A stretch of DNA of 43,891 nucleotides from Escherichia phage vB-Eco-KMB35, in the sequence record OR525704.1; one strand, given 5' to 3'. Below the pieces are notes generated by a model that did not search any database, had not been told where the DNA came from, and was given only the letters and a program-made list of their open reading frames with translations. A program made the position numbers and the translations under genes. Positions 1,241-36,008 of this stretch are shown piece by piece; positions within the stretch are counted from its first letter, which is position 1, and each line of letters opens with the position of its first letter.

Positions 1241-2722
1241 ATGTTAACTATGAACGGTCAGAATCAGGGTGTTAAGACAAAACACCGGGAATGGCTGCAT
1301 CACTTCGATAAATGGCAGAAGGTACGCCACGCTCTTGAAGGCGACCTTATCCGCTATCTGCGCAACGTCGGGAAGAACGAGCCTGACCAGACCTACGCAG
1401 CACAGCGACAGGAAGAATACGAGAACGGCGCTATCTGCTACAATTTCACCAAACGCACGCTGGCGGGGATGACGGGGTCAGTGATGCGCAAAGACCCTGA
1501 GCAGATTATCCCGCCTGAACTTGAGTACCTGTTGCACAACGCTGACGGTTCAGGTGTCGGGCTGTGGCAGCACGCGCAGGATACGCTGATGGAGATTAAC
1601 TCGATAGGCCGTGGCGGGTTGCTGGTGGACGCCCCGGAAACAGCCGCAGCAACGGCGGCAGAGCAGAACGCGGGATTATTAAACCCGGTAATCGCATTCT
1701 ATACCGCGGAGAACATTATCAACTGGAGACTCACCCGCATCGGTTCAGTGAACCGCGTGACGATGGTTGTATTGCGTGAGGCATGGGAATACTCGGAACC
1801 AGGCGCTGAGTTTGAAACAAAATTCGGCGAGCAATACCGCGTCCTTGACCTGATTGACGGTCGCTACCGCCAGCGCATCTACCGCTTCGATGCCGAAGGT
1901 GGCGCACAGGATGAAGTAATCGAAATCTTCCCGGAACTCGGCGAACAGTTGCGCGGTAAAATCCCGTTCACGTTCATTGGCGCAAGCAACAACGACGCCA
2001 CTATAGACGATGCGCCTTTACTGCCGTTAGCTGAGCTAAATATAGGACACTTCAGAAATTCGGCCGATGTGGAAGAGGCCAGCTTTATAGTAGGTCAACC
2101 GACACTGTTCATTGCCCCCGGCGAGAACATGAGCATGGAGCAGTGGAAAGAAGCCAACCCACACGGCATACGCATGGGGTCGCGTTCAGGCCACAACATC
2201 GGCTCCGGCGGCAATGCGTTTCTGGTTCAGGCGGCGGAAACTAACCTCGCCAAACAGAATATGCTGGATAAAGAGAATCAGGCCATCCAGATTGGCGCGC
2301 AGCTTATCACCCCGACGCAGCAAATCACCGCTGAATCGGCACGGCTGCAACGCGGCGCCGACACGTCAGTCATGGCAACAATAGCACGTAATGTAAGCAT
2401 GGCGTATACCGATGCGTTGCGCTGGGTTGCGGGTATGCTTGGGCTTAGTGAAGATACTGAGATTGAGTTCAAGCTGAATATGGAATTCTTCCTGCAACCT
2501 ATGACAGCTCAGGACCGCGCTCAGTGGATGGCGGATATTAACGCTGGCCTGCTACCCGCCACCGCTTACTATGCTGCGTTGCGCAAGGCAGGTGTGACTG
2601 ACTGGACAGATGAGGACATTCAGAACGCTATTGAAGACGCACCTCTGCCGTTGGGTTCTGTTGCTCAGGTAGCGGGAGAGATTCCGCAGTCGGCGCAGCA
2701 ACAGGACACCACTCAGCAGTAA
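1241..2722 (+). CDS. Portal protein
   Basis: 493-aa ORF directly after terL, ATG with RBS, size and position typical of portal. Confidence 0.8.
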   Translation: MLTMNGQNQGVKTKHREWLHHFDKWQKVRHALEGDLIRYLRNVGKNEPDQTYAAQRQEEYENGAICYNFTKRTLAGMTGSVMRKDPEQIIPPELEYLLHNADGSGVGLWQHAQDTLMEINSIGRGGLLVDAPETAAATAAEQNAGLLNPVIAFYTAENIINWRLTRIGSVNRVTMVVLREAWEYSEPGAEFETKFGEQYRVLDLIDGRYRQRIYRFDAEGGAQDEVIEIFPELGEQLRGKIPFTFIGASNNDATIDDAPLLPLAELNIGHFRNSADVEEASFIVGQPTLFIAPGENMSMEQWKEANPHGIRMGSRSGHNIGSGGNAFLVQAAETNLAKQNMLDKENQAIQIGAQLITPTQQITAESARLQRGADTSVMATIARNVSMAYTDALRWVAGMLGLSEDTEIEFKLNMEFFLQPMTAQDRAQWMADINAGLLPATAYYAALRKAGVTDWTDEDIQNAIEDAPLPLGSVAQVAGEIPQSAQQQDTTQQ

Positions 2723-2732
2723 GTTCACCTAT

Positions 2733-2755
2733 AGCCCCGAAAGGGGCTTTCTTAT
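2733..2755 (+). terminator. Hairpin agcccc-gaaa-ggggct followed by ttctt after portal gene
   Basis: Perfect 6-bp GC stem with tetraloop and T-rich tail. Confidence 0.5.
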
Positions 2756-2758
2756 AGT

Positions 2759-3835
2759 ATGCTATTAACTTTAGCGCCACAGGGTTTATCTATGAGCTTA
2801 CTTACATCCCTAATCAGCCATCAGATATGGCTGCAACGCACCGCATCCGGTGAAGTGAAAGACCTCACGCCGTTCATTCAGGAGATAAGGGATGAAATCA
2901 AACGGCAGGTGCTGTTATTCGGTGACGACGGTCGCAGCACTGCGCGACTGAATAAACTGTTACGCGACCTGGAAGAAGCACTAACCGGTATTACGGGTGA
3001 CTGGCAAACAAAGCTAACAGACGACCTTAAGGAACTGGCGGCGTACGAGGCTGAGTGGAACGTAAAGACACTGACCGCCAACGTAGACGCGGAATTTGTT
3101 ACGCCTACCGCTGAGCAGGTATGGGCCGCTGCCGAGTTTCAACCATTATCATTGAGCGACAAGCCCGTTGATTTCACTAAGCTGATGGACGGCTGGGGTG
3201 AAACGGAAGTAGCACGTCTTGTAACTGGAGTTAAGATGGGCTTTGTGCAAGGTCAAACCACACGGCAGATTGTTAAGAATGTTGTTGGCGCTGGTGGACT
3301 AGCCGACATCTCAGAACGTAACGCGACTACGGTAATCCGCACCGCGCTGTCCCACGTATCCAACGAGGCCCGTAACGAGACGTACCGCCAGAACGACGAC
3401 ATCATCGAGAAATATGAGTGGGTGTCAACTTTGGACAGCCGTACCAGCACGATTTGCAGGGCCAGAGACGGAATGACGTGGGAAATCGGTAAAGGTCCGA
3501 TGCCACCAGCCCATCCTAATTGCCGAAGTACCACTGCACCGGTAATCAGTTCAGAGTTCGACTTCCTTGATAAAGGCGCAAAACGTGCGGCTAAGGGTGC
3601 GGACGGCGGTACTCAGGTAAGCGCAGACACCACCTATTACGAGTTCCTGAAACAACAACCAGCATGGTTTCAGGACCAGGCGCTCGGTCCTGTTCGCGGT
3701 AAGATTTTCCGTAACAGCGGTATATCGCCGGAAGAGTTTCGCGTAATATCTGTAGATGGTTTCGGGAATCCGCTCACGCTTAAGCAGATGGCGGAACTCG
3801 ATAAACGTGTTGCTGATTATCTGAAAGGGGAATAA
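2759..3835 (+). CDS. Head morphogenesis protein (MuF / SPP1 gp7-like minor head protein)
   Basis: 358-aa ORF after portal; position and size typical of MuF-like proteins. Confidence 0.6.
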   Translation: MLLTLAPQGLSMSLLTSLISHQIWLQRTASGEVKDLTPFIQEIRDEIKRQVLLFGDDGRSTARLNKLLRDLEEALTGITGDWQTKLTDDLKELAAYEAEWNVKTLTANVDAEFVTPTAEQVWAAAEFQPLSLSDKPVDFTKLMDGWGETEVARLVTGVKMGFVQGQTTRQIVKNVVGAGGLADISERNATTVIRTALSHVSNEARNETYRQNDDIIEKYEWVSTLDSRTSTICRARDGMTWEIGKGPMPPAHPNCRSTTAPVISSEFDFLDKGAKRAAKGADGGTQVSADTTYYEFLKQQPAWFQDQALGPVRGKIFRNSGISPEEFRVISVDGFGNPLTLKQMAELDKRVADYLKGE

Positions 3836-24098: not shown

Positions 24099-24280
24099 TT
24101 CTCACCTTCGCTTTTCTTGAAGCTGCGCTTTATGTCCGGCAGCGTGTAACATCGTGACTTTTCATATTTACCGTTCGAGCTTACTAAAACAAAGCTGTTG
24201 CCGTCTTTTGATATGTACTCGATGGTGAAAGTATTGAATGAGCGTATGCTGTATATTTCATCGCCAACATTAAGTTTCAT
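24095..24280 (-). CDS. Hypothetical protein (61 aa)
   Basis: Start overlaps helicase stop; translationally coupled. Confidence 0.45.
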   Translation of the reverse strand: MKLNVGDEIYSIRSFNTFTIEYISKDGNSFVLVSSNGKYEKSRCYTLPDIKRSFKKSEGEK

Positions 24281-25701
24281 TTCTTACCTCGTCTCTTCAT
24301 GTAATTAAGCAACTCTTCCTGTACCGATTTTTTCTCGTCCGTACGCGCGGCAACAACCTCGTCCAGCGTGTCTTTAGCGACGATATGATAGAGGAACACC
24401 GGGCGCTCGTGTCCCGCCTGTTTCTGGCGGACCGGGCCTATGCGCTCAACAACCTGTAAATAGTGCTCAAGGTTCCACCCTTGCGAAATAAACGCCAGAT
24501 GATGTCCGCCGTCCTGTAAATTCAAACCATGACCAGCTGACGCAGGATGCACGCATAAGATTTCGATTTCGCCACGGTTCCACGCTTCCATCTGCTTATT
24601 ACCCTTCGCACCTTTAGCAAACGCCTGTGCTTGCGGGAATCGCTTAAGGATACGCTCCAGTTCGTGCTTGAACTGATAAGCCACCAGTAACGGCGCACCT
24701 TGTAGCTCCTCAACAATTGACTCGAGCGCATCCAGTTTCGTGTCGTGCACTTTCTCCCAGTCTTTGGTTGCTTCTCCGTCGTCACCCGTCACATACACGG
24801 CACCGGAAGCAATCTGCAAACACTTAGACGTCTTCGCTGCCGCGTTAGCCGCTTCAACTTCCCCGCTCTCCAGTTCCGCGAATAACTTTTCCTCCATATC
24901 GATGTACGCCTGACGCGCTTTCTTCGGCAGGTCGATTTCAACAGGTACGATAACCGGCGCTTCGCATCCGAACCACTCAGCGGCGTCAATCGTGAGACTG
25001 ATGTCCTTCATCTTCTGGTGGATTTCAGTATCCGCACCCGGGCGGGCGTGGTATTCGCGCGCCATAGCAGATTTGCCCTTCTGCACCGAGTTAAACCAGC
25101 GGTCGGTGAATGCCGTGTACGAAGAACCGAGGCGCTCGCCCGCGTCGATAAACCAGTTCTGTCCCCACAAGTCCTTGAGGCCGTTAGGCGATGGTGTACC
25201 TGTCAGGTTGATAAAACGCTTAACCTTTCCGAACGCCACTCTACTAAGCGCCTTCGCCCGCTTGCTGCCGCCTGAACGGCTGCGGAATGACTTCAGTTTC
25301 GTGCTTTCATCGGCAACGATAACGGTAAAAGGCCAGTCGTCTTTGCCGTAGTAGTCAATCAACCACTCTATTACCTCATAGTTCGTGCACACCACGTTAG
25401 CGTCCGACTCCAGCGCCGCGATGCGGCGCTTCTCTGAACCGGTCGCGTCTACGACACGCAGACATGGGAAATTCCACTTAGTTTGTTCCGCCGGCCATGT
25501 GCCTGATGCAACGCGCAACGGGGCGAGGATTAACACGCGGTCCTCTTCTGTAAGCTGCCCGTTGCGGAACAGTCGGTTTAATGTCCACAGTACGCTGCCA
25601 GTCTTCCCGGCGCCCATGCTCGCCCAAATATTACAGCGATGGTGCCGCAACATGAACGAAGTCATTAGCTTCTGGTATTCGCGCCTTTGAAACTTACTCA
25701 T
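24277..25701 (-). CDS. SNF2/DEAD-like superfamily 2 helicase
   Basis: 474 aa; Walker A GAGKTGS, DExx box VIVADESTK, C-terminal helicase domain. Confidence 0.75.
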   Translation of the reverse strand: MSKFQRREYQKLMTSFMLRHHRCNIWASMGAGKTGSVLWTLNRLFRNGQLTEEDRVLILAPLRVASGTWPAEQTKWNFPCLRVVDATGSEKRRIAALESDANVVCTNYEVIEWLIDYYGKDDWPFTVIVADESTKLKSFRSRSGGSKRAKALSRVAFGKVKRFINLTGTPSPNGLKDLWGQNWFIDAGERLGSSYTAFTDRWFNSVQKGKSAMAREYHARPGADTEIHQKMKDISLTIDAAEWFGCEAPVIVPVEIDLPKKARQAYIDMEEKLFAELESGEVEAANAAAKTSKCLQIASGAVYVTGDDGEATKDWEKVHDTKLDALESIVEELQGAPLLVAYQFKHELERILKRFPQAQAFAKGAKGNKQMEAWNRGEIEILCVHPASAGHGLNLQDGGHHLAFISQGWNLEHYLQVVERIGPVRQKQAGHERPVFLYHIVAKDTLDEVVAARTDEKKSVQEELLNYMKRRGKK

Positions 25702-26488
25702 TTACGGCCCCCATGAACGCCTTTATAAATTCAGCGGCTACTTGCGGGACGATAGCATTGCCGTAACCGCGCAATCGTCCCACTCTGGCGGGTACCCCAT
25801 TAGCCAGCGGGAATGTGCTGGGTTCAACTGGCCTGAATTTTCCATCCCGGCATCCGAGCCAGTCAGCATCTGACCAGAACCCGTTAGGCGGATTGGCTGT
25901 GTCAGAGATGCCTCTGTTTGCAGATTGTGGCCCCCGTTCCTGCCCTGATGGCCTGCTCCCGCCGAGTTGTTCGCACACGGTGTTGGCCAGTTGCTGCGCT
26001 CCGAAGAACAATCGATTCCTTTTGTGCGGTGCGCCGACGCTACAAGCTGGGAGTACGGCAAACCCGACGGCGTAGTCTTCTCTTTCCAGGTGAGTTTGTA
26101 AATCGCACATCCACGATTTTGCAATTGCTGCCGCAACCTGCTCCCCAAAGATGACTGGAGGGTGGCACTCGCTGATGAGGTCGAGGAGCACAGGTGCGAG
26201 GTGTCTCTGGTCGAACTGTCCGAGTTGCTTTCCTGCCGTGCTAAACGGTTGGCAAGGCGGACTTCCCGTCCATATAGGCGTATCTTCAGAAACTCCCGCA
26301 AGTCTGAGCGCGAGAGGCCAGCCGCCGATACCCGCGAAAAAATGACACTGGGTGAACCCGTCAAGGTCTTCTGGCTTAACTTCGGTAATGCTTCTTTCAT
26401 CTACAACTCCAAAAGGTATGTGACCCTGTTTTATCAACTCACGCAGCCACGCGGCTGCGCCTTTATCCCATTCATTGTAATAGTTCAT
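25694..26488 (-). CDS. DNA (cytosine-5) methyltransferase
   Basis: 264 aa; motif I FAGIGGW, motif [13 protein letters not shown], QxRxR-like KRNRLFF, C-terminal GNAIVP. Confidence 0.7.
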
Positions 26489-26676
26489 TTCGCCACCAGC
26501 ACCAGCTCTTTACGCCCGAACGCCGTAACGTTACCCGTTACATCTTCGATAACCAGTTTACCGTTCGACTCGACGAACACCGTATCAACGGCAACAGGTT
26601 GACGTGTCTTAACGTTGAAAATCATGTCACCCGGTACGATGTCACGTGCTGGTTTGCGGTCGTATTCGTGTTTCAT
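26485..26676 (-). CDS. Hypothetical protein (63 aa)
   Basis: RBS AAGGAA; overlaps methyltransferase start. Confidence 0.45.
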   Translation of the reverse strand: MKHEYDRKPARDIVPGDMIFNVKTRQPVAVDTVFVESNGKLVIEDVTGNVTAFGRKELVLVAK

Positions 26677-26706
26677 TTCTCAATTCCTTATATTGTTGGT
26701 GTGTGA

Positions 26707-26994
26707 TTAACTATAATAGCCCGCTATTAGGTCGTCAACCTGTTTAAACGAACCAACGACAAAAACATTTGCACCACGTTTACGCATCCGCTCGTGCTCT
26801 CGTAACTGGTGCGGGTCCGGCTTCGTGTTTTCGTCTTTCTTAACCTCGACGAACCAGATGATGCCACCAGGGAGAATTACCAGCAGGTCGGGGGCGCCGG
26901 AGCGCCCCTCATAAGACAGCTTACGAACGAGGCCACCAATGGCCTCGAATCGCTCTTTTGCGTATTTCTGCACGCGCCCCTCAGGCGTACTCAT
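26707..26994 (-). CDS. VRR-NUC domain nuclease
   Basis: 95 aa; PDLLVI...VEVKK PD-(D/E)XK-type motif. Confidence 0.7.
   Translation of the reverse strand: MSTPEGRVQKYAKERFEAIGGLVRKLSYEGRSGAPDLLVILPGGIIWFVEVKKDENTKPDPHQLREHERMRKRGANVFVVGSFKQVDDLIAGYYS
26709..26738 (-). promoter_or_regulatory. Promoter element family B (minus-strand TTGACG-N17-TATAGT) overlapping the 3' end of the VRR-NUC gene
   Basis: 30-nt element aactataatagc-NNN-ctatt-NNNN-cgtcaa shared with 30898 and 33447. Confidence 0.45.
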
Positions 26995-27075
26995 CTATAC
27001 ACCCCTCACGTTTCGTATGTTCAGTACCGCAGCGCGGACAGATTCGACAGTCTTCTTCATAAAACCAGTAGATTT

Positions 27076-27207
27076 TCATTCCAGCACCCACAGATAAATT
27101 GCGATGAACATGCCCAATATGGCAACCATCATGCCGTATTGACCCTCGTGACAGTAGACACCGGCAGCAAATCCCGCCAGTACCGCGATAATCAGTTTAC
27201 TTGGCAT
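27076..27207 (-). CDS. Small membrane peptide (43 aa)
   Basis: Strong AAGGAG RBS; hydrophobic sequence LIIAVLAGFAAGVY...MMVAILGMFIAIYLWVL. Confidence 0.45.
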   Translation of the reverse strand: MPSKLIIAVLAGFAAGVYCHEGQYGMMVAILGMFIAIYLWVLE

Positions 27208-27892
27208 CTCTACATTCTCCTTCAGGCCACCTATTAGGAAAAGACGGTATATGTGAAACTTCTCTCGCCGCTTTTATTCTTTTAATGGCGGGACCTATCT
27301 CCGTAACCATTTCAATGAATGTAAACCGGTGTCCTCTGGTAAGATTACATGTCTGACAACAAGAAACGCAGTTAGATACTATGTGCCCGCTTGTATTATC
27401 TATGCGGTCTACCCCGACTTTTGTAGTGCTTCCGCAATAATGGCATGGCTGTGATATTAGTTTAATAACGCTTTCCAGTGTTAAATCGCAGATAAGCCCT
27501 TTTCCTGAATCTGCTCTTTTGTATCCTAACAAAAGCGCGTACGCCCGCGTCCTTTGGTCCTTATTCACCAGTTCCCTGCGTTGCTTGTTGAGACACTCCC
27601 GGCAATCTTTCCTGATATGAGAGCCATTACTTTTATTTCCTTTCCTGAAGTTTTCCTCTGTTAAAGGTTTTACCTCCCCACACTTTCTGCATTTAACAGG
27701 CTTCCCAGTGAAAACATACCAAGGGCTTTCTCGTCTGGATTTACCTTGTAATTTAAGTTTTTCGTCATACTTTTCCTTCCTGTTAGCATTTACACACTCT
27801 TTACACCAGCGTTGCAGCCCGAGGCGCGTTGACTTTGAAAAATACTCTGTAGTCGCCGGTTTATCTTCGCCGCATCTTGAACACTTTTTCAT
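27197..27892 (-). CDS. HNH endonuclease with two N-terminal CxxC zinc-ribbon repeats (homing-endonuclease-like)
   Basis: ATG 27892 with GGAG RBS; repeated C-R/K-CGE-KP...C-E-C modules; C-terminal CHYCG...DRIDN...H HNH motif. Confidence 0.7.
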   Translation of the reverse strand: MKKCSRCGEDKPATTEYFSKSTRLGLQRWCKECVNANRKEKYDEKLKLQGKSRRESPWYVFTGKPVKCRKCGEVKPLTEENFRKGNKSNGSHIRKDCRECLNKQRRELVNKDQRTRAYALLLGYKRADSGKGLICDLTLESVIKLISQPCHYCGSTTKVGVDRIDNTSGHIVSNCVSCCQTCNLTRGHRFTFIEMVTEIGPAIKRIKAAREVSHIPSFPNRWPEGECRDAK

Positions 27893-27902
27893 TAATAACT
27901 CC

Positions 27903-27939
27903 AAAAAAAAAAATACCGACATAGCCATTATATCGGTAT
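27903..27939 (-). terminator. Minus-strand intrinsic terminator: hairpin ataccga/tcggtat followed by T11
   Basis: 11-nt A-run on + strand (27903..27913) adjacent to 7-bp inverted repeat, just 3' of DNA polymerase gene. Confidence 0.6.
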
Positions 27940-27971
27940 TTACATTTTCTACAACGTATTTCCTAAATCTA

Positions 27972-30152
27972 CTACTTGGCGTATCTGTACATTTCGCTAC
28001 CTTCTGCTACAAGAGGGAACCCCTCCGCCCATTCTGGTAATTCGCACATCAATCGCTCAAGCTCTGCGACATTGTATTCCGGCGTATCTGGAGTTTCGCA
28101 GATAATCTCATCGTGGACATGAAGTACAATTGGATAACCGTTTGCTTCTACGTTCAGCAGCGCGTTGGCCAGCAAATCACGGCACAACGCCTGAGTGCAG
28201 TTTTCCACCAGTTTACCAGAGTAGGTGTACTGGAAGCCCCACTGCCGGGTTAACTGGTTTTCGCCCTGGTACTTGATGCGCACGTTAGTAGACACCTTTC
28301 CATCTTCGTCTGTCTCTTTCGACACACTTAATCCGACGCCCGGGTATGACATAACGCGACCCGACGGCAACGTCATGCGCAACCACCAGCCCGCGACTTT
28401 GTCGCCGTTGTTGTCTGTCTCTATGTTACGCGAAAACTTAACGCCTCGCGGTCCTGCGGTGAACTCTTTACCTGGATTGCGGATAGCGGCCATAGCTGCG
28501 TCTTCAATATCTCGCCAGAAAGCTACTGTTTCAGGGTGTGACTCTCGCCACATACGCTTGATAGCGTCACAGGTACGCCACACTTTCTTATCAAGAATAT
28601 ACGATGGTCGGTCATCCTTCTCCCCGGGTCGCGGCGGTCGCTTGGCTTCCTGAATACGTGCCCATTCATAGCCGCGTGCAGTAGCCGCCCAGATGTGGTC
28701 CGGGAAAGTACCGTCCATTGTTTTTGACATATCAACAAGGTCAAGTCCGAGGTTCTTAGCAAACTGAACGAAAGCGCCAACACCACCAGCGTAGCCGAGG
28801 CCAAGCTCGCAGGCTTTACCAATCTGGCGCAAGTCTTTGCGTTCCTTCTTAATGTAATCCGGCTCCATGCCGAACATCTTACCCGCGGTTACACAGTAAA
28901 TGTCCAGCCCGGCGCGGAACGTATCTAGCGCGGTTTCTTCGCCTGCCAGCCACGCAAGCCCCCGACCTTCAACGTTAGAGTAATCGGCGACGACAAACTT
29001 TTTTCCGGCTTCCGGGATAATGCAGCTACGCACCGTCGATGCCGTTAGCTTAGCGACATCGAAACGGCGATGCGCGCGGCCCTTAAGTAACGCTGAAATA
29101 CCTTTATCCAGTTCATCATCGTGATAGTACCCACGCGCGAGGTTCTGCGGCTGAAATCCTTTACCGGCAAATCGTAATGTACGCTTGGCTCCGCCGTACT
29201 GAATGCAACCACGACGGCGGTCGTCCGACGAGCGCCCTAACAGCAGCGGGTTATATTTCGTTGACGCTGTGGACGCGGCCCCGAGGCGCATTTCGATAAT
29301 CGCGCGGGCGTCGTCCGGTAAATCATCGTCCGCCAGCAGGTCGTTAAGCGTTGACTTCTGTGCATTGTGTATGCGGTGCGCGGGCGCAAGTTCACGCAGA
29401 ATCGGAAGGAAGTCTTTACCGGTAAGCGAGCCGCCGTATTTACGTTGAGCTTCTTCCTGTAACTGTGCCTTGTGCTTCTCTACGGCTTCAATCGCGGCTT
29501 CCGCCAGTGCGACGTCAACCTTAAATCCGCGGTCGTTGATTAACTGGTCAAGTTCCAGTACACGGTCTTCGAATTCGGAGTTACCCCACCGCGGCAGCTT
29601 ATGGAACACTTCACGCATCGCTGTGATGTCACTCACGGCATACTTGATAAACAGCGCCCACTCATCCGGGTGCGTTTCCGCGGTATAGCGGCGGATTTTG
29701 TAGTTCTTCGGCGTCGGTTTAGAGAAACGCTTAATCAGAGCCTTGCCGCGTTTATCTTTCGCGTTGTCTGCAGACACGCCCAGCACTTCGCACAGCGCAT
29801 CAAGAGAACCCGGCAGCGCGTGACGGAACGCCCAAATCATAGTATCAATGGTGTTGCTTACCGGAATATCAAAGCCCCAGCAGTGCTTCATGACGAGCCT
29901 ATCGAAAAGTCCACCGTTGTGCCACACCATCTTGATGCGGCTGTTGGGCTTAACAAGGCGGCGCAGTGCGCGGTGTAAATCCCCCGGCATGTCGCTGCCG
30001 TCGGTGCAATCCCATACCCGCACAGGTTCGTCGTCAAAAGCATATGTACAGATAAGCACTTCGGTTGACGGGTGTTCGGCGTAAGCGTAAGAACCGACTT
30101 TCTTCAAATCGGCTTCTGAGAATGTTTCAAAGTCTAAGAACAGGTAACTCAT
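27972..30152 (-). CDS. Family A DNA polymerase with N-terminal 3'-5' exonuclease domain
   Basis: 726 aa; exo motif FLDFETFS; polymerase motifs DYSNVEGR (A), RQIGKACELGLGYAGG (B), HVHDEI (C). Confidence 0.9.
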   Translation of the reverse strand: MSYLFLDFETFSEADLKKVGSYAYAEHPSTEVLICTYAFDDEPVRVWDCTDGSDMPGDLHRALRRLVKPNSRIKMVWHNGGLFDRLVMKHCWGFDIPVSNTIDTMIWAFRHALPGSLDALCEVLGVSADNAKDKRGKALIKRFSKPTPKNYKIRRYTAETHPDEWALFIKYAVSDITAMREVFHKLPRWGNSEFEDRVLELDQLINDRGFKVDVALAEAAIEAVEKHKAQLQEEAQRKYGGSLTGKDFLPILRELAPAHRIHNAQKSTLNDLLADDDLPDDARAIIEMRLGAASTASTKYNPLLLGRSSDDRRRGCIQYGGAKRTLRFAGKGFQPQNLARGYYHDDELDKGISALLKGRAHRRFDVAKLTASTVRSCIIPEAGKKFVVADYSNVEGRGLAWLAGEETALDTFRAGLDIYCVTAGKMFGMEPDYIKKERKDLRQIGKACELGLGYAGGVGAFVQFAKNLGLDLVDMSKTMDGTFPDHIWAATARGYEWARIQEAKRPPRPGEKDDRPSYILDKKVWRTCDAIKRMWRESHPETVAFWRDIEDAAMAAIRNPGKEFTAGPRGVKFSRNIETDNNGDKVAGWWLRMTLPSGRVMSYPGVGLSVSKETDEDGKVSTNVRIKYQGENQLTRQWGFQYTYSGKLVENCTQALCRDLLANALLNVEANGYPIVLHVHDEIICETPDTPEYNVAELERLMCELPEWAEGFPLVAEGSEMYRYAK

Positions 30153-30171
30153 TATTTTTGACCCCTAGTAA

Positions 30172-30198
30172 AAAGGCCCAATGAAGGGCCTTAGTTAA
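30172..30198 (-). terminator. Hairpin aggccc/gggcct with T-run in minus-strand sense, between SSB-like and polymerase genes
   Basis: Inverted repeat followed on minus strand by ttttt. Confidence 0.45.
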
Positions 30199-30212
30199 AA
30201 TTGATTCAGATA

Positions 30213-30839
30213 TTAGCGGCGACGACGTTCACGGCGCGGTGCTTCATCTTCTTCGTCATCTTCCAGGTCATTGACGCTCGCGGCGACTTTAGAACCGCCG
30301 AACGCTTTGCCTTCGCCAACGTATTTAATCGCCAGCAGGTTAACGCCGAGGACTTTGTATTTCTGGCTGAACCAGATTTCAACGCTTACGTTAGCTAAGC
30401 ATCCGCTGTAAACCTGTTCACCTTCAATCTGTTCGCCGTCTACGTTGAAGTCCTGCTCTACCTGAGTCTCACCTTTTTTAGAGGTTACAATCAGCGGCTG
30501 TTTCTGTGCCTTCGCTTTGAAGTAGAAGCCTTCCGGGAAGTCTTCAAACGGATTGTCGCGCTCGGCAATGTCTTTAATCGCGCATTTATCCATGTGCTTA
30601 CCTTCACCGTAGTTGGACTTCATCCATTTCTCGGCAGCGGCTGCGCCTAACGCTTCTTCAACTACAGCGTAAACGGTGTCGTAGAGTGCATCGATTTGAG
30701 CATGGTCAGACGGCAGGATGATAGTCGCGCTGTACTGGCCTTTAGTGATTGAGCCATCATCGTTTTCACGGTCTTTTTCACGTTCAAATACGTTAACCCA
30801 AGCAGTGTTTACTTTACGCAGATTCAGTTTAATACCCAT
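30213..30839 (-). CDS. Single-strand DNA-binding-like protein (DUF2815-like, from memory)
   Basis: 208 aa; acidic C-terminal tail DLEDDEEDE; position next to polymerase and nuclease genes. Confidence 0.5.
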   Translation of the reverse strand: MGIKLNLRKVNTAWVNVFEREKDRENDDGSITKGQYSATIILPSDHAQIDALYDTVYAVVEEALGAAAAEKWMKSNYGEGKHMDKCAIKDIAERDNPFEDFPEGFYFKAKAQKQPLIVTSKKGETQVEQDFNVDGEQIEGEQVYSGCLANVSVEIWFSQKYKVLGVNLLAIKYVGEGKAFGGSKVAASVNDLEDDEEDEAPRRERRRR

Positions 30840-30897
30840 CGTGATTTCTCGCTTTTAAGTTTCGTTTACTCCGGGAAGCTGCCCGGTCAGTGATTAG

Positions 30898-30927
30898 AAC
30901 TATAATAGCTAACTATTCAGGTGTCAA
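30898..30927 (-). promoter_or_regulatory. Promoter element family B (minus-strand TTGACA-N17-TATAGT)
   Basis: Near-consensus hexamers, 17-nt spacer, about 60 nt upstream of gene start 30839. Confidence 0.6.
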
Positions 30928-31116
30928 ATAAAATTTCGCAATACGGACTATGTTCTCGAAATCATTCATATCAACGGGTTCGAATTCATCCTCCACATGG
31001 TTGTATCGCACCATCGTGCCGTTCAGGAACGTAAACGATTCCGAATGGATATAACCGCCCCAGCGCCATATCATCACAAAATCTTTATCTGTGGGCATTT
31101 CATTTACTTGAATCAT
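30913..31116 (-). CDS. Hypothetical protein (67 aa)
   Basis: ORF with start overlapping upstream stop. Confidence 0.4.
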   Translation of the reverse strand: MIQVNEMPTDKDFVMIWRWGGYIHSESFTFLNGTMVRYNHVEDEFEPVDMNDFENIVRIAKFYLTPE

Positions 31117-32354
31117 TCTAAATCCTCCTCTGTTACCCTATTCCACTCAGGACGTTTGTCGTCTGCCGTTGCAACACATGGTGCGCCTGGCTTACGGGTA
31201 ATGAAGTCTTTCAGTTCTTCTTCCGGTATGACTTTAACCGCTTCGGTTGGCGTCATGAGCACTTGCTTCATTAGCGCTATGCCATACTTGCCAGCCACTT
31301 TCTCTGCGTCTTTCCACGCACGATTGCCCGGGCGGCCCTCAACCAGCTTGTACCCCGGCACTTTCTTACCGGAATGCAACGCGGTGGCCATCGCTTTCTC
31401 AACCTTGTCGATGTGCTGGCGCAACAACGGCAACTTCTCATATTCAGCTACGAGTTGCTCCGGCGTAAGTTCCAGCGCAAAGTCGTCCTCCAGTTCTTCC
31501 GCCAGTACAGAGTTAACGGTTTTTGTACGCGCGGCACACTGTTCAGAGAACCGACACCACTGACAACCATCTACAGACGGCTTGAAATCAGATGCTTTCA
31601 GGTTCTTCTTACCGCGGAAATACGCATCAAGCGCCAACAGTGCACGTTTCTTGGCAAACTTAGCGAACAGTTCAAGGCCTTCAACCGAGATGTCCCACTC
31701 CGACGCGCCGCCAGTGTACGGCTGGAAGATTACCAGACGAACAACTGTTATGTTATAACGTCTCTTGAGTCGGCGATAAACACCGAGAGCGTAAAGCATA
31801 AGCTGTTTGTTTTCTTTCGCTTCGACACGATGCCGCCCGGTTTTCAGGTCGCCGATAATGAGCATGTGCTCGTCGGTGTTTGCCAGTTCCTGTACAGCAA
31901 CGAGGTCAGCGGTTCCGAACGTCTCAACGCCTTCATACCCCGGATGCAATACCTCAGTAAGATTGACACGCATTTCCAGCTTGGCGTAAGTCGCTACGTC
32001 TATAATCGCTTTGCAGTAGTCGGTGTACTTGCGCACCTGCTCAATCATGTCCGCCGTAATCAGTACCGCGCCTTTCATCGGGCTGATTAGCGCCTTAATC
32101 TGACCTTTACCCTCATCCAGCACGTAAGCACCGACTTCACGTTCTAACGGCAGCGCAGTGCCACGGATATAGGCGTTTAGGTGCACTTCTGCGATTGTAT
32201 GGCATGCGGTCCCCGTAACGGCAGCTTTACCTGACGTGTTAGGAATATCTTTTTCACAGGCCAGTGATGCACTGCACGTCAGCCACTTCTTAGCACCTGA
32301 CGGCGACAATAAGGCGTGCACATCATTATTGCCACCGCGTTCTTTTAGAATCAT
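31113..32354 (-). CDS. PD-(D/E)XK-type nuclease (DUF2800-like, from memory)
   Basis: About 413 aa from ATG 32354 (RBS GGGAGAA); IGDLKTG...EAKENKQLMLYALG nuclease-like motifs; adjacent to SSB-like and polymerase genes. Confidence 0.55.
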   Translation of the reverse strand: MILKERGGNNDVHALLSPSGAKKWLTCSASLACEKDIPNTSGKAAVTGTACHTIAEVHLNAYIRGTALPLEREVGAYVLDEGKGQIKALISPMKGAVLITADMIEQVRKYTDYCKAIIDVATYAKLEMRVNLTEVLHPGYEGVETFGTADLVAVQELANTDEHMLIIGDLKTGRHRVEAKENKQLMLYALGVYRRLKRRYNITVVRLVIFQPYTGGASEWDISVEGLELFAKFAKKRALLALDAYFRGKKNLKASDFKPSVDGCQWCRFSEQCAARTKTVNSVLAEELEDDFALELTPEQLVAEYEKLPLLRQHIDKVEKAMATALHSGKKVPGYKLVEGRPGNRAWKDAEKVAGKYGIALMKQVLMTPTEAVKVIPEEELKDFITRKPGAPCVATADDKRPEWNRVTEEDLE

Positions 32355-32623
32355 GCTCTGTTCTCCCACTGGTCAATTAAATGCCGTGTCTTGTGGTCGC
32401 AATGTAAGGCCCATCCATACATCGACTCGAAGACATAAAAGTCGGGCTTGGCGAATGTCGTGCGTTTAATCCGCGACACGTGACGACCTATATCTTTAGG
32501 ACGCGGTACTTTGCCTAAGTACGCCATCTCTTCCATCTGGTGCGCACCGGACGGCGCACGCAACAGCCACAACGCCTCTGTGTTATCCCGCCTGTCTACG
32601 GCGCGGTAGAGTTGGTAAATCAT
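32351..32623 (-). CDS. Hypothetical protein (90 aa)
   Basis: ORF translationally coupled to nuclease gene. Confidence 0.45.
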   Translation of the reverse strand: MIYQLYRAVDRRDNTEALWLLRAPSGAHQMEEMAYLGKVPRPKDIGRHVSRIKRTTFAKPDFYVFESMYGWALHCDHKTRHLIDQWENRA

Positions 32624-32666
32624 ATTTCCGCCCCTCCGTTAAAGCGGCCCGAAGGCCGCCTGATAG

Positions 32667-33167
32667 TTATTCTTCTTCGAAATACTTGTTCTTGATTGCT
32701 GTCAAGCGTTCCAGGTATTCAGCCAGGTCTTCGTCTTTAATCGCTGCAATCTTCATTTTCTTACCTGTGAACTCTTCCAGCAGTTCATCAGAATCATCGC
32801 ACGCGGCATCGCTCGGACCTTCGTTAATTGCATCGTCGATAGCCTGAATCTGGTCGCGCAGAGACTTATAGTCTACTTCTTCTTTCTCTTCTTCCGGCTC
32901 TGGCGTCGTTTCCTCTACTTTAGCTTTACGCGGCTTGCGTTTTGGCTTCTCTTCTTCTGCCGGTTTAGTGTCAACGATGTCTTCACCTTCTGCCGGGATT
33001 TCTTTTGTTGCTTCTTCAGCGCACTCAGCTACCGCTTCTTTGGTGTACGATACAGTCTCTACTTCCAGCGGCGCGGCAACCTGAACAACTTGTTTCGCAC
33101 TGTTCGCGGCAATCAGTTCATGTGCAACTACGAAACGTTCCAGCAATACTAAGAATTTCTCTAACAT
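32667..33167 (-). CDS. Highly acidic protein (166 aa)
   Basis: E/K-rich low-complexity centre (EEEKPKRKPRKAKVEETTPEPEEEKEE). Confidence 0.5.
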   Translation of the reverse strand: MLEKFLVLLERFVVAHELIAANSAKQVVQVAAPLEVETVSYTKEAVAECAEEATKEIPAEGEDIVDTKPAEEEKPKRKPRKAKVEETTPEPEEEKEEVDYKSLRDQIQAIDDAINEGPSDAACDDSDELLEEFTGKKMKIAAIKDEDLAEYLERLTAIKNKYFEEE

Positions 33168-33191
33168 TTGTTTCTCTCCTGTTTGTGTAAG

Positions 33192-33419
33192 TTACTCACC
33201 GTCGCCTTCAGTAAGGCTATCGTCTATTAGTTCAAATTTACCGTTTGAGTGTTGAATAGCTTCTTGCCCGCAATGGTCACAGACAACAAGTTTATCGAAC
33301 CCATCAAACTCATCCCCTACTACGCAAGAAAGTACAAATTTATGTTTTGTGCACACTTCTTGCGGAGCGCCGAAAATTGCTCGAAAACCTTTAGCTATGG
33401 CCCCAGTGATTGTGTTCAT
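33192..33419 (-). CDS. Small zinc-ribbon protein (75 aa)
   Basis: CxxC-like Cys pairs (C..C...C..C); RBS GAGAGGGG; first gene downstream of promoter 33447..33476. Confidence 0.5.
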   Translation of the reverse strand: MNTITGAIAKGFRAIFGAPQEVCTKHKFVLSCVVGDEFDGFDKLVVCDHCGQEAIQHSNGKFELIDDSLTEGDGE

Positions 33420-33446
33420 ATCTGCCCCTCTCGTTTGGTATGGGCT

Positions 33447-33476
33447 AACTATAATAGCGAACTATTCACATGTCAA
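33447..33476 (-). promoter_or_regulatory. Promoter element family B (minus-strand TTGACA-N17-TATAGT), early leftward promoter
   Basis: Consensus hexamers with 17-nt spacer; palindromic core TAATAG-N4-CTATTC. Confidence 0.6.
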
Positions 33477-33540
33477 TGGGCTTTTCTAAAATAATTAATA
33501 TGGTACTATTCACATATCAACTGACTAAGGAGTAATTGAC

Positions 33541-33756
33541 ATGCAACCATCTGAACTAGGTATCCGTGTAGAACAACGCCGTAAAGAACTCGGCATCTCC
33601 CAGCGCCGTTTGGCGGCCCTGACCGGCGTTTCCCAGGGCGCGATTAACCAACTGGCACTTGGAGTAACTCAGGACGTCCGCCCGGCAACGCTGTTCAAAC
33701 TGGCGGAAGTTCTGGAAGTAGACGCCAAGTGGCTGGCGTTAGGTGAAGGGGCTTAA
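33541..33756 (+). CDS. Cro/XRE-family helix-turn-helix transcriptional regulator
   Basis: 71 aa; LGISQRRLAALTGVSQGAINQL HTH; divergent from replication operon; AAGGAG RBS. Confidence 0.7.
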   Translation: MQPSELGIRVEQRRKELGISQRRLAALTGVSQGAINQLALGVTQDVRPATLFKLAEVLEVDAKWLALGEGA

Positions 33757-33773
33757 AGCCCCTTTCTTTTTAC

Positions 33774-36008
33774 CTATTCCAAATCCTCCTCTGTCACCAC
33801 CAGCATCTCATTTGGTTCGTATAGTGTCTTCGGCCTTAATCTATCCCCTATTCTTTCGGGTATACGATATGTTCTCGGTACTACTTCGCCGTTAGCATCG
33901 CAACCAAGCATTAGTTCTCCATCTTTCAACATTTTATCAAGATGGGTGTTAGTCACAGAGAAGTCACCGGAACGAGCCACTATCTGCTGCTGAGTAAAAC
34001 CGCGACCTGTGTCATCTGACTGTTGCAGGTCTTCCAGTGCCGAAAGTATTGACTCCTTCCTTACTTCATCCCTGCCGCGTTTAACTTCTTCCTTTACTTT
34101 TTGCTTACCTTCTTTCGTCAACCCTTCTTCCCGCTCTTTCTCCTCGTCAGTTTTGAACGGCTCGAAACCCCACGGCATCAACACAAGCGCCTTGTGTGGT
34201 TCAGGCAGGTCCAGGTTTACGATTGTGCCGTATTCCTCTGTGCTACCCAGGAACTCAACCGCTCGGTATTCTTTAGGCGGCGGCGCTTCACGGAACTGTA
34301 CCGACTCCAGCACCATGCCAACCGTCTTCTGCTGAGGCCCGTGCTTGAATTTCGAGTGATATACGTTTATCTGACGGTCGGTTGCACGTTCGATTGTCAG
34401 TTCCACGTCAACACCCGCATACAGCGCCCCACTGCCGCGTGCTTTCTTTCCACCCTTCGGCGTATGGTGGACAACGCCTACTGCGGCTTTAGTTGCATCG
34501 CGTACTTCTTTCAGAATGGCGATAACTTTACCCATGCCGATTGCTGTTGATGAACTGTTCTCGTCGAACTTATCAATCGTCAGGGCCAGCGTCTGGTTAA
34601 GGGTGTCGAAGGCAACCATGCCAATAGGTTCATCCCCTGCGGTTTCGCGCATTAACTTAATCAGGCTTTTAAGTTTGCCGACTTCGCCCATATCGATGAC
34701 GTGTACATAATCTTTACCTTCCCCGCCATATTTAGCCGCTAGTGCATCAATACGGGTGCGTGTAGCTGCGCCACCCTCACCATCAATATAGAAATGGTGG
34801 CAACGCTGGGTATCCGCCCCCGCAAACCGGTACCCGGCGGCGCTCAGGTACATCATCCCCAGCGTATAGAATGATTTGTACGTGCCAGATTCCCCGACGA
34901 TATCCCATATACAATCTGATGGCATGTACCCTTCAACGACGAAATCAGCCTTTACCGGCTCCGGTAACTCGTCCCCCTCTGAGTCCTCCTCTGAGTCCTC
35001 GTCGTCTTCCAGGTCGTCGAGGCTGCAAGTTACTGGGTCCTCGTTCTCTGTGCGGTGTAGTTCTTCAATCTCTTCATCCGGTAAATCAGGCAGAGCCGCA
35101 CGAATGCTGTTAATACTGATAGGTTGCTTGTCTACGTTAAGCTCGTCTGGCAGGCCGCACATACGCAGGGCCAAATGCTGTCGGCGGTTAAGCTCGGTGC
35201 AAGCGCCGTTGTTTGTATGCTGGCACACAAAGCGCACTTCTTTACCATCAAGCATGATGCTTGTGGAGCCTTTGCCTGTATGCAGATGTTCGTTAGGACA
35301 TGGGACTTCGTACCCGCGCCCGGAAGATAAAGCGTCAAGGCCAAGCTCGGCTTCGCAGAAATGCGCTATATCAGCGTTAAGCCCATACTCATCGGCGGCA
35401 AGTGTCTTAACTTCACGTTTACTCAACCCCATCTCTTCGGCTTTCTTGATGTACCGCTCGGCACGGATAACACGCCCTTCTGTAACCGTTATCTTTGACT
35501 CTCTATGTGGCAGATAGATAAGGCGGTTGCCGTCTTCCGTGCAGTGGTCACGCAAGGCTTCATCTATTTCTAACTCTGCACAAATAGCCCGTTGGACCAT
35601 CCACGCATCGTTAGAGTTAAACGGCGTGCGAGCCGGTACGAGAACGCGGAAGGCGTAATCACCGTTTTTACACACATGCTGATGCGATGCCGTTGTATGC
35701 AGAATATTGAAGAACGGTGCGTTCTTGAATTTGCGGGTAAGGTCGCGGTACTGAGTACGGTTGAGATGGTCAAAATCGAACTTAACCACACTGTCTTCCA
35801 GAATAGCGTTCTTACGGCGACCGCCAACAGGCGCAATAGCTTTCTGTTTAATCTTGGCCGCGTCGTACTCTTCCTTAGTCCATGACGGGTCCACGGATAA
35901 ACGCTTCGATGTATCGCAGACATACTCCACAAACTGCTCGAGCGGCATCTCACGCGCTACAGGGTTTTTATCGAATGTGTTACGCAGCGTTGCAAAAACA
36001 ATATTCAT
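33774..36008 (-). CDS. Bifunctional DNA primase-helicase
   Basis: 744 aa; central zinc-binding CPNEHLH...C...C; C-terminal RecA/DnaB-like Walker A GESGTYKS. Confidence 0.7.
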   Translation of the reverse strand: MNIVFATLRNTFDKNPVAREMPLEQFVEYVCDTSKRLSVDPSWTKEEYDAAKIKQKAIAPVGGRRKNAILEDSVVKFDFDHLNRTQYRDLTRKFKNAPFFNILHTTASHQHVCKNGDYAFRVLVPARTPFNSNDAWMVQRAICAELEIDEALRDHCTEDGNRLIYLPHRESKITVTEGRVIRAERYIKKAEEMGLSKREVKTLAADEYGLNADIAHFCEAELGLDALSSGRGYEVPCPNEHLHTGKGSTSIMLDGKEVRFVCQHTNNGACTELNRRQHLALRMCGLPDELNVDKQPISINSIRAALPDLPDEEIEELHRTENEDPVTCSLDDLEDDEDSEEDSEGDELPEPVKADFVVEGYMPSDCIWDIVGESGTYKSFYTLGMMYLSAAGYRFAGADTQRCHHFYIDGEGGAATRTRIDALAAKYGGEGKDYVHVIDMGEVGKLKSLIKLMRETAGDEPIGMVAFDTLNQTLALTIDKFDENSSSTAIGMGKVIAILKEVRDATKAAVGVVHHTPKGGKKARGSGALYAGVDVELTIERATDRQINVYHSKFKHGPQQKTVGMVLESVQFREAPPPKEYRAVEFLGSTEEYGTIVNLDLPEPHKALVLMPWGFEPFKTDEEKEREEGLTKEGKQKVKEEVKRGRDEVRKESILSALEDLQQSDDTGRGFTQQQIVARSGDFSVTNTHLDKMLKDGELMLGCDANGEVVPRTYRIPERIGDRLRPKTLYEPNEMLVVTEEDLE

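Follow-up and report, generated by a model that had tools for sequence, protein, structure and literature searches.

Two overlapping reading frames in the orphan C5-cytosine methyltransferase gene of Escherichia phage vB-Eco-KMB35

Escherichia phage vB-Eco-KMB35 (sequence record OR525704.1) carries a gene for an orphan C5-cytosine methyltransferase (C5-MTase). The gene lies in a leftward module between positions 24277 and 36008 of the window, which is the whole stretch of 43,891 nucleotides (nt) analysed here. It occupies 25694-26488 on the minus strand and encodes an alpha-like chain of 264 amino acids (aa), referred to below as frame A. A second open reading frame (ORF) of 220 codons, the beta-like frame B, is located wholly inside the gene in the +1 frame (25738-26400, minus strand). 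The original prediction described the 264-aa protein as a C5-MTase on the basis of its motifs. The catalytic motifs are present, but the protein is probably not the whole enzyme, and the nested +1 ORF was overlooked. Purifying selection acts on each of the two frames, and the two-frame architecture is family-wide.

The methyltransferase gene and the frame nested in it

Frame A is matched by PF00145 with 59.4 bits against a cut-off of 22, and by phrog_363 (1.5e-82). It contains motif I (FAGIGG, aa 51-56), motif IV (PCQ, aa 78-80), motif VI (GEQV, aa 115-118), motif VIII (RNR, aa 157-159), and motif X (GNAIVP, aa 243-248). FAGIGG, PCQ, and RNR are found where they had first been placed, and all five motifs are invariant or nearly so in 31 diverse relatives. 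In a profile search of PDB, frame A matches M.HhaI (E 1e-18). The hhalign comparison of the two has a probability of 98.4%, covers motif I and motifs IV-VIII, and ends at HhaI residue 175. It pairs residues 36-169 of frame A with residues 3-175 of HhaI, and residues 34-70 of HhaI, with motifs II-III, are deleted between motifs I and IV. Residues 3-37 of the phage MTase (26383-26482, minus strand; ...VDERSI) resemble motifs II-III of M.HhaI (SNEWDKYAQEVY...GDITQV), yet they precede motif I. This suggests that the motif order is permuted to II-III-I-IV across the whole MTase family.

The layout of frame A comprises the II-III-like segment, motifs I, IV, VI, and VIII, a linker rich in glycine, arginine, and serine, and motif X. 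The linker between motifs VIII and X has about 40 aa in the window, of which 57% are G, R, S, D, E, or Q and 13% are hydrophobic. Close relatives with flanks of 90% identity or more have frame A proteins with total lengths from 264 to 359 aa, and the linker accounts for this spread. After the linker, the chain reads FW.DADW..C.DGK.RP... and then enters motif X. Alignments to HhaI and the composition of the chain gave no ordered target-recognition domain (TRD) and motif IX between motifs VIII and X of frame A, and the C-terminus of frame A has no match in PDB. The 264-aa protein is probably incomplete, as it has no ordered TRD and motif IX is matched better by the other frame.

Frame B consists of a helix and a hairpin (IYKLTWK..TPSG..ASAHRT), one WPTP module, and a motif-IX-like segment. 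Its ATG at 26400 comes after a TAG stop codon and has GGAG upstream with a 6-nt spacer, and the same context is present in six Kagunavirus sequences. A conserved start codon for frame B was sought and dropped, as the first ATG falls at several different positions. A database search with the C-terminal 122 aa gave 232 homologues with E-values as low as 7e-38 and 36-88% identity, none of them with a Pfam domain. Aligned with one another, these proteins make up a true family that has indels, repeated WPTP modules, and a near-invariant C-terminal segment. A profile search of 1.8 billion cluster representatives found 19,002 frame-B-type proteins (50%-identity clusters), including 4,534 at E <= 1e-30. 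The seven high-scoring representatives that were examined are all multi-module frame B proteins without a fused catalytic domain. Frame B matches phrog_1008 (8e-53) and phrog_31772, both of which are labelled 'DNA methyltransferase', and a search of NCBIfam gave no match to it. In the top alignment to HhaI, residues 191-207 of frame B are paired with motif IX (KLHPRECARVMGYPDSY) over 17 columns, with an E-value of 0.12.

The modules of frame B differ between relatives. There is one module in the window, Bas74, and fTaEco03, a single module of another kind in K1H, and a pair of modules in K1ind2 and Golestan. The DNA that gives these recognisable modules in frame B encodes the low-complexity linker in frame A. 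Among the frame B relatives P0241, P0275, and P0279, some proteins have 426-577 aa and up to about ten tandem WPTP modules, and such multi-module proteins imply stop-free frame A linkers several hundred residues long. Recurring types of WPTP module include WPTPTTRDHKGGYQGGRIRNGK, WPTPMAGTPAQNGYNEAGNTDSSRKTVEL, and WPTP..NN.TGAG.QGR.GG.NLQT. In an MTase gene from Terriglobia (locus L133), a Zn-ribbon/HNH-like domain, similar to that of the window ORF at 27197-27892, is inserted in frame B at about 2400-3000, and frame A is open throughout.

The nested ORF has already been annotated in four relatives: as ORF28, a 'putative Mte8-like protein', in K1ind2, as TE3_033 in fTaEco03, as gp33 in K1H, and as YP_010749187.1, a 'methyltransferase', in NTEC3. 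These are the same ORF at the same position and in the same frame, and the annotations provide labels only. The fTaEco03 and NTEC3 proteins share a 90%-identity cluster with the 220-aa product of the window. A search for the source of the 'Mte8' label found none; the label may reflect a sequence match to M.EcoHK31I. The annotations of BASEL (Bas70-76) and Golestan leave the nested ORF out. In three unrelated metagenomic phage contigs (L003, L004, and L005), both frames are open on the same DNA; the gene callers retained frame B, which has no Pfam match, and discarded the Pfam-recognisable MTase frame. Searches of the literature gave no report of a phage cytosine MTase with overlapping frames.

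Purifying selection on the two frames

The openness of the two frames was followed in two sets of loci. The first set comprises 80 IMG/VR loci located through frame B motifs. AHSRWLM is present in 76 of these, and in all 76 both frames are open for at least 220 codons. The second set is less biased and comprises 80 bacterial-genome loci chosen by N-terminal motifs of frame A alone, 69 of which are uncut by a contig end. The bacterial loci come from Proteobacteria, Verrucomicrobiota, Planctomycetes, Terriglobia, Chloroflexi, and others. A full-length frame A with motif X is present in 64 of the 69 uncut loci. Frame B is open for 220-627 codons in nearly all of the uncut loci, and the third frame is open for 10-188 codons.

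Synonymous-codon shuffles with the frame A protein fixed show that, at p <= 0.05, 19 of 21 loci have a longer +1 open span than their shuffled versions. The +1 span of the window, 220 codons, compares with a shuffle mean of 97.5 and was reached in none of 300 shuffles. The +2 frame, examined as a control in the same shuffles, gives no signal (median p 0.49). Chance combined with GC content was considered as the source of frame B, and it is ruled out by the shuffles and the +2-frame control. When the frame B protein is fixed instead, the shuffles predict a mean of 3.3 frame A stop codons across the modules, and a stretch free of such stops has a median probability of 0.025 (0.03 for the window).

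Codon-position entropy was computed over 140 loci. Residues 1-120 of frame A have an A-only coding pattern, in which third positions are the most variable. Third positions are constrained at residues ~123-154 and ~203-242 of frame A. The WPTP modules and the motif-IX-like stretch are most variable at the third position of frame B, and the A-coding pattern is restored at motif X. Motif VIII of frame A and the overlapping residues 97-128 of frame B (GSTLYxLTWK..TPSG..LRASAxRT) are both constrained, which indicates that the same DNA must be translated in both frames around this motif. The N-terminal ~80-95 residues of frame B are unconstrained.

A proposed enzyme of two chains and its alternatives

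It is probable, by analogy with M.EcoHK31I, that the two polypeptides assemble into one C5-MTase. M.EcoHK31I from E. coli HK31 is a heterodimeric alpha/beta C5-MTase that recognises YGGCCR (Lee, Kam and Shaw 1995, as described in PMC2836561 and PMC3404938). Frame A would give the catalytic chain, with the S-adenosylmethionine-binding and catalytic motifs I, IV, VI, and VIII, a disordered linker at the usual TRD site, and the motif X helix. Frame B would be translated from its own ATG behind GGAG and would give a second chain with the helix-hairpin, the WPTP module, and the motif-IX-like segment. The two chains would associate into one active enzyme, as shown biochemically for M.EcoHK31I alpha/beta, and the frame B chain would provide the small-domain and DNA-recognition part. 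We infer that a heterodimer is formed and that frame B sets its specificity.

In M.EcoHK31I, beta is encoded within the alpha gene in the other frame, and the two are separately expressed polypeptides (PMC2836561). Alpha carries motifs I-VIII and X, beta carries motif IX, and the nested beta can be required for methylation (PMC2836561, PMC3404938). Beta can lose its first 42 residues in vitro, and its translation can begin at internal Met codons (PMC2836561, PMC3404938). The phage gene is similar in that the ORF of the small chain is fully nested in the gene of the large chain in the other frame, an arrangement that in the phage is conserved family-wide and exceeds chance. Like M.EcoHK31I alpha, the large phage chain has motifs I, IV, VI, VIII, and X. 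The dispensable N-terminus and internal starts of M.EcoHK31I beta are paralleled by the unconstrained N-terminus and variable start of phage frame B. The sizes of the phage chains, 264 aa and up to 220 aa, are also comparable to those of M.EcoHK31I alpha and beta, which Lee et al. in 1995 reportedly gave as ~309 aa and ~176 aa. In contrast, M.EcoHK31I is half of a restriction-modification (RM) pair, whereas the phage enzyme is an orphan. The TRD of M.EcoHK31I is predicted in alpha, while in the phage the conserved modules of the variable region are read in the beta frame and alpha has a low-complexity linker, and the motif order at the N-terminus of phage alpha looks permuted, unlike that of M.EcoHK31I. 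On its architecture, the phage MTase would belong to the nested alpha/beta C5-MTases of the M.EcoHK31I kind, which are known but rarely recognised.

M.AquI (CYCGRG) is a two-subunit C5-MTase that is split in the variable region, and its small subunit comprises the distal variable region and motifs IX and X (PMC3404938). The phage enzyme would resemble it as a C5-MTase made from two polypeptides, but motif X of the phage stays on the large chain, and the gene of the small chain is entirely nested. The monomeric M.HhaI and M.HaeIII (PF00145) have the catalytic core in common with phage alpha. Unlike these monomers, phage alpha has no ordered TRD, has a II-III-like segment at its extreme N-terminus, and has the better match to motif IX in the other frame. 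The multispecific C5-MTases of the Bacillus phages SPR, phi3T, and rho11s have tandem exchangeable modules between the catalytic motifs, in the same chain and frame, and the role of these modules in specificity was shown experimentally. The tandem modules of the relatives studied here vary in content as well, but in the +1 frame, and this likeness is a lead only.

Several observations weigh against the assembly of the two chains into one enzyme. The C-terminus of frame A also aligns weakly to motif IX-X of HhaI (E 0.3) and has a motif-IX-like skeleton, although CCC and GGGG runs that encode Pro and Gly in both frames account for this weak skeleton. The alignment of frame B to motif IX is not significant alone at E 0.12. 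The AlphaFold2 model of frame A, made with 30 close homologues, has a predicted local distance difference test (pLDDT) score of 36, and the AlphaFold model of frame B is only moderate, with a mean pLDDT of 67 and a predicted template modelling (pTM) score of 0.33. No Pfam family was found for frame B among the 93 members searched, and a profile search of frame B against PDB sequences gave nothing at E <= 10. The first ATG of frame B is not fixed across the family and falls at frame A residues ~23-37 or ~90. The predicted TRD of M.EcoHK31I is assigned to alpha and not to beta (PMC2836561, PMC3404938). In addition, BASEL phenotyping found 'a high sensitivity to RM systems' among Kagunavirus isolates for the systems tested there (PMC11990801).

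It is unlikely that frame B, though a real protein, has a role other than that of an MTase subunit, such as a regulator that binds DNA or an anti-defence factor whose DNA is shared with the MTase gene. The absence of Pfam and PDB matches and the statistically weak similarity to motif IX are in line with such a protein, and the differing numbers and types of tandem WPTP modules resemble a binding array that is diversifying. However, frame B in the sample is nested in this MTase family, and the seven examined representatives include no fusion to a catalytic domain. Frame A is without an ordered target-recognition region exactly where frame B is encoded. The PHROGs label of the frame B families also argues for an MTase subunit, and M.EcoHK31I provides a precedent for a nested beta that is needed in methylation (PMC2836561, PMC3404938).

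Programmed recoding of the gene is quite unlikely. It would involve either a +1 shift after motif VIII, which fuses the N-terminal part of A to the C-terminal part of B, or two shifts, the first into frame B and the second returning to frame A, which give a single canonical chain with motifs I-VIII, the WPTP target-recognition region, and motifs IX and X. A composite of 'DGKFR' from frame A, a segment of frame B, and a segment of frame A resembles 'NGKTR-KLHPRECARVMGYPDSY...FGNSVVINV' of M.HhaI. Along the gene, selection passes from frame A to frame B and then to frame A again, and the rare codon AGG is located at the first junction in the window. On the other hand, frame A is open through the module region in 64 of the 69 independently chosen loci, where about three stop codons are expected, and a shifted ribosome needs no such openness. 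The constraint on residues 97-128 of frame B over the essential motif VIII of frame A means that both frames are translated there. The spacing of motifs IX and X in the composite is ~5 residues, compared to ~12 in HhaI, and M.EcoHK31I functions as two separately expressed polypeptides (PMC2836561). A conserved slippery site was not noticed, and no search was aimed at one.

It is very improbable that frame A alone is a complete orphan C5-MTase and the +1 ORF an untranslated by-product of composition and frame A conservation: frame A passes the Pfam threshold with motifs I, IV, VI, VIII, and X, has the weak motif-IX-like skeleton at its C-terminus, and is the only one of the two ORFs in many curated phage records, but its linker is hypervariable and of low complexity, frame B shows conservation in stretches where A shows none, with WPTP modules in indel-rich regions and B-type variability of codon positions, the +1 frame beats the synonymous shuffles while the +2 frame does not, and an untranslated frame B is effectively excluded by the openness, shuffle, and entropy tests.

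A wider proposal is tentative and rather doubtful. It holds that the two-frame layout is ancestral and near-universal in a very large family of phage and prophage C5-MTases, with at least 19,000 beta-type clusters. Beta would be a cassette array of exchangeable WPTP modules that sets the specificity and may quickly change or multiply it, and alpha would only keep a stop-free disordered loop. Together with the apparently permuted order of motifs II-III before motif I, this would represent a distinct and essentially uncharacterised architectural class, which Pfam and gene-caller annotation have largely missed.

The replication module and the role of the methyltransferase

The region 24277-36008 is the standard leftward replication/recombination module of a Kagunavirus (Guernseyvirinae) phage, from a lineage that has been well sampled, and the content of this module is already known. 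Megablast of the region returned 489 phage records, of which the BASEL isolates Bas70-76 are the closest (~94-98% identity), and the genome of the window has ~95% identity to these isolates. RefSeq relatives such as Golestan put the group of the window in Guernseyvirinae, genus Kagunavirus. The order of genes in the window agrees with that of the annotated relatives Bas73, Bas74, and Golestan. The genes that had been listed for the module, namely the polymerase, the SSB-like protein, the nucleases, the SNF2 helicase, the primase-helicase, and the MTase, are all present, are all on the minus strand, and are backed by profile searches, and the reading of the region as a replication module also holds. 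The features described below are on the minus strand unless stated otherwise.

An SNF2-family DNA helicase of 474 aa (24277-25701) has a match to PF00176 (E 3.6e-13) and a weak match to Helicase_C, and is annotated as 'DNA helicase' in Bas74 and Golestan. Its start and the stop of the MTase gene share 8 nt. On the other side of the MTase gene, a 63-aa ORF (26485-26676) matches phrog_4879 (1.3e-46), a family of unknown function, and its stop codon overlaps the ATG of the MTase (ATGA). Next to it is the gene of a VRR-NUC-type nuclease or Holliday-junction resolvase of 95 aa (26707-26994). The VRR-NUC assignment is below the Pfam threshold (PF08774, E 1.6e-3), but it is recovered through phrog_93 (4.7e-33) and phrog_5702 (8.9e-21). 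An ORF with a Zn-ribbon and an HNH/'endonuclease VII' domain (27197-27892; phrog_1035, 1.3e-29) is located in a low-GC stretch (GC 0.43) beside polA. It is missing from Golestan and is probably a mobile endonuclease. Its mechanical start at 27928 falls inside the hairpin that comes after the polymerase gene, and the real start is therefore probably 27892. This hairpin has 13 bp and is followed by T9 (27941-27911). It was found by the terminator scan ~30 nt past the stop codon of the polymerase gene, and it is a stronger terminator-like signal than the hairpin at 30169-30192 described below. The endonuclease ORF, this 13-bp hairpin, and the promoter-like sites described below had been overlooked in the original prediction.

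The family A DNA polymerase of 726 aa (27972-30152) contains a 3'-5' exonuclease region and matches PF00476 (9e-16), weakly PF01612, and the NCBIfam PolA models. A gp2.5/Enc34-type single-stranded DNA (ssDNA)-binding and annealing protein of 208 aa (30213-30839) matches PF10991 (4.2e-16) and phrog_112 (4.3e-41). The acidic tail ascribed to this SSB-like protein is present as an acidic stretch, but the true C-terminus is basic and Arg-rich, with DLEDDEEDEA followed by PRRERRRR. A DUF2800 / PD-(D/E)XK nuclease of 418 aa is encoded at 31113-32369. The profile check of its DUF assignment agrees with DUF2800 (PF10926, E 8.8e-69), and PF12705 also matches (1.4e-8). A highly acidic protein of 166 aa (32667-33167) has no Pfam match and belongs to phrog_3127 (3e-67), whose function is unknown; it may have been conflated with the ssDNA-binding protein in the original prediction. 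The replicative helicase-primase of 744 aa (33774-36008) matches PF13481 (AAA_25; 4.6e-17) and phrog_3228 (E 0). A Cro/XRE-type helix-turn-helix ORF (33541-33756) is located on the plus strand, opposite to the leftward module that surrounds it. It is flanked by face-to-face promoter-like sites and followed by a plus-strand hairpin (33448-33492; 33745-33765). It is annotated as CRO/DicA-like in Golestan and is lacking in Bas73 and Bas74.

A hairpin had also been placed ahead of the polymerase gene, and it is present there and structurally conserved. It occupies 30169-30192 in the gap between the gp2.5-like gene and polA, with ~20 nt between it and the stop codon of the former and ~20 nt between it and the ATG of the latter. 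Its stem AAGGCCC/GGGCCTT (30192-30173) has 7 bp with five GC pairs, the RNA reads AAGGCCC-UUCAUU-GGGCCUU, and a T-run (UUUUU) follows. The fold has -14.8 kcal/mol within 66 nt (z = -2.0), and a strict consensus terminator scan did not call the hairpin at 30169-30192. The hairpin does not vary within Kagunavirus, and this holds even for Golestan, in which another ORF comes after it. The Jerseyvirus counterpart is AAGGCGGC-UUCG-GUCGCCUU with a U-run, in which two pairs are altered on both sides and pairing is retained. These compensatory changes support a functional RNA structure.

Three near-identical sites of the form TTGAC(A/G)-17-TATAGT are found on the minus strand inside what had been called an operon. 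The site at 33448-33476 precedes a 75-aa ORF. The second (TTGACA-17-TATAGT, 30899-30927; 11/12 consensus) precedes the gp2.5-like gene, and the third (TTGACG-17-TATAGT, 26710-26738; 10/12, a match to consensus only) precedes the 63-aa ORF and the MTase. With these three sites, the module looks like several transcription units, and the overall number of promoter-like sites in the scan is not above chance. A promoter-like site ahead of the gp2.5-like gene and a hairpin after it make a unit of promoter, gene, and terminator the simplest reading. The hairpin is most likely the rho-independent terminator of a self-contained, strongly expressed transcript for the ssDNA-binding protein, and read-through would feed the polymerase gene. 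Attenuation of the polymerase, as originally suggested, would be a reasonable consequence of such read-through. A Kagunavirus transcriptome places the C5-methylase gene among the late-peaking genes and covers transcription only (PMC12645636).

The neighbours of the MTase gene are the helicase, the 63-aa ORF of unknown function, and the VRR-NUC nuclease. The MTase gene of Bas73 is 100% identical to that of the window. No restriction enzyme is present among the 81 annotated features of Bas73, in which small unnamed ORFs were not checked singly, and the orphan status that had been proposed stands at the level of annotation. An MTase without a partner restriction enzyme would methylate the phage DNA at one sequence type, and this methylation would guard only against restriction enzymes of matching specificity. 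Self-protection against host restriction is plausible but narrow, and the sensitivity of the BASEL isolates to RM systems likewise indicates that any protection is limited to enzymes of matching specificity.

The simple picture of a 264-aa enzyme is incomplete. Attempts to predict or engineer the methylation phenotype of this phage, or of the BASEL Kagunavirus isolates, from the 264-aa ORF alone would probably fail, and an edit in the MTase gene that looks silent can destroy a second protein. The same-strand overlap of ~200 codons is kept over many bacterial phyla and is among the larger dual-coding regions conserved in phages with dsDNA genomes. Gene callers for metagenomes often retain only the frame without a Pfam match, and methyltransferases of this family are therefore under-counted. 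Of interest here are the size and conservation of the overlap, its frequent loss from annotation, and a possible link between module content and methylation specificity. The differences in modules between near-identical phages suggest a quick route to new methylation specificities against restriction systems.

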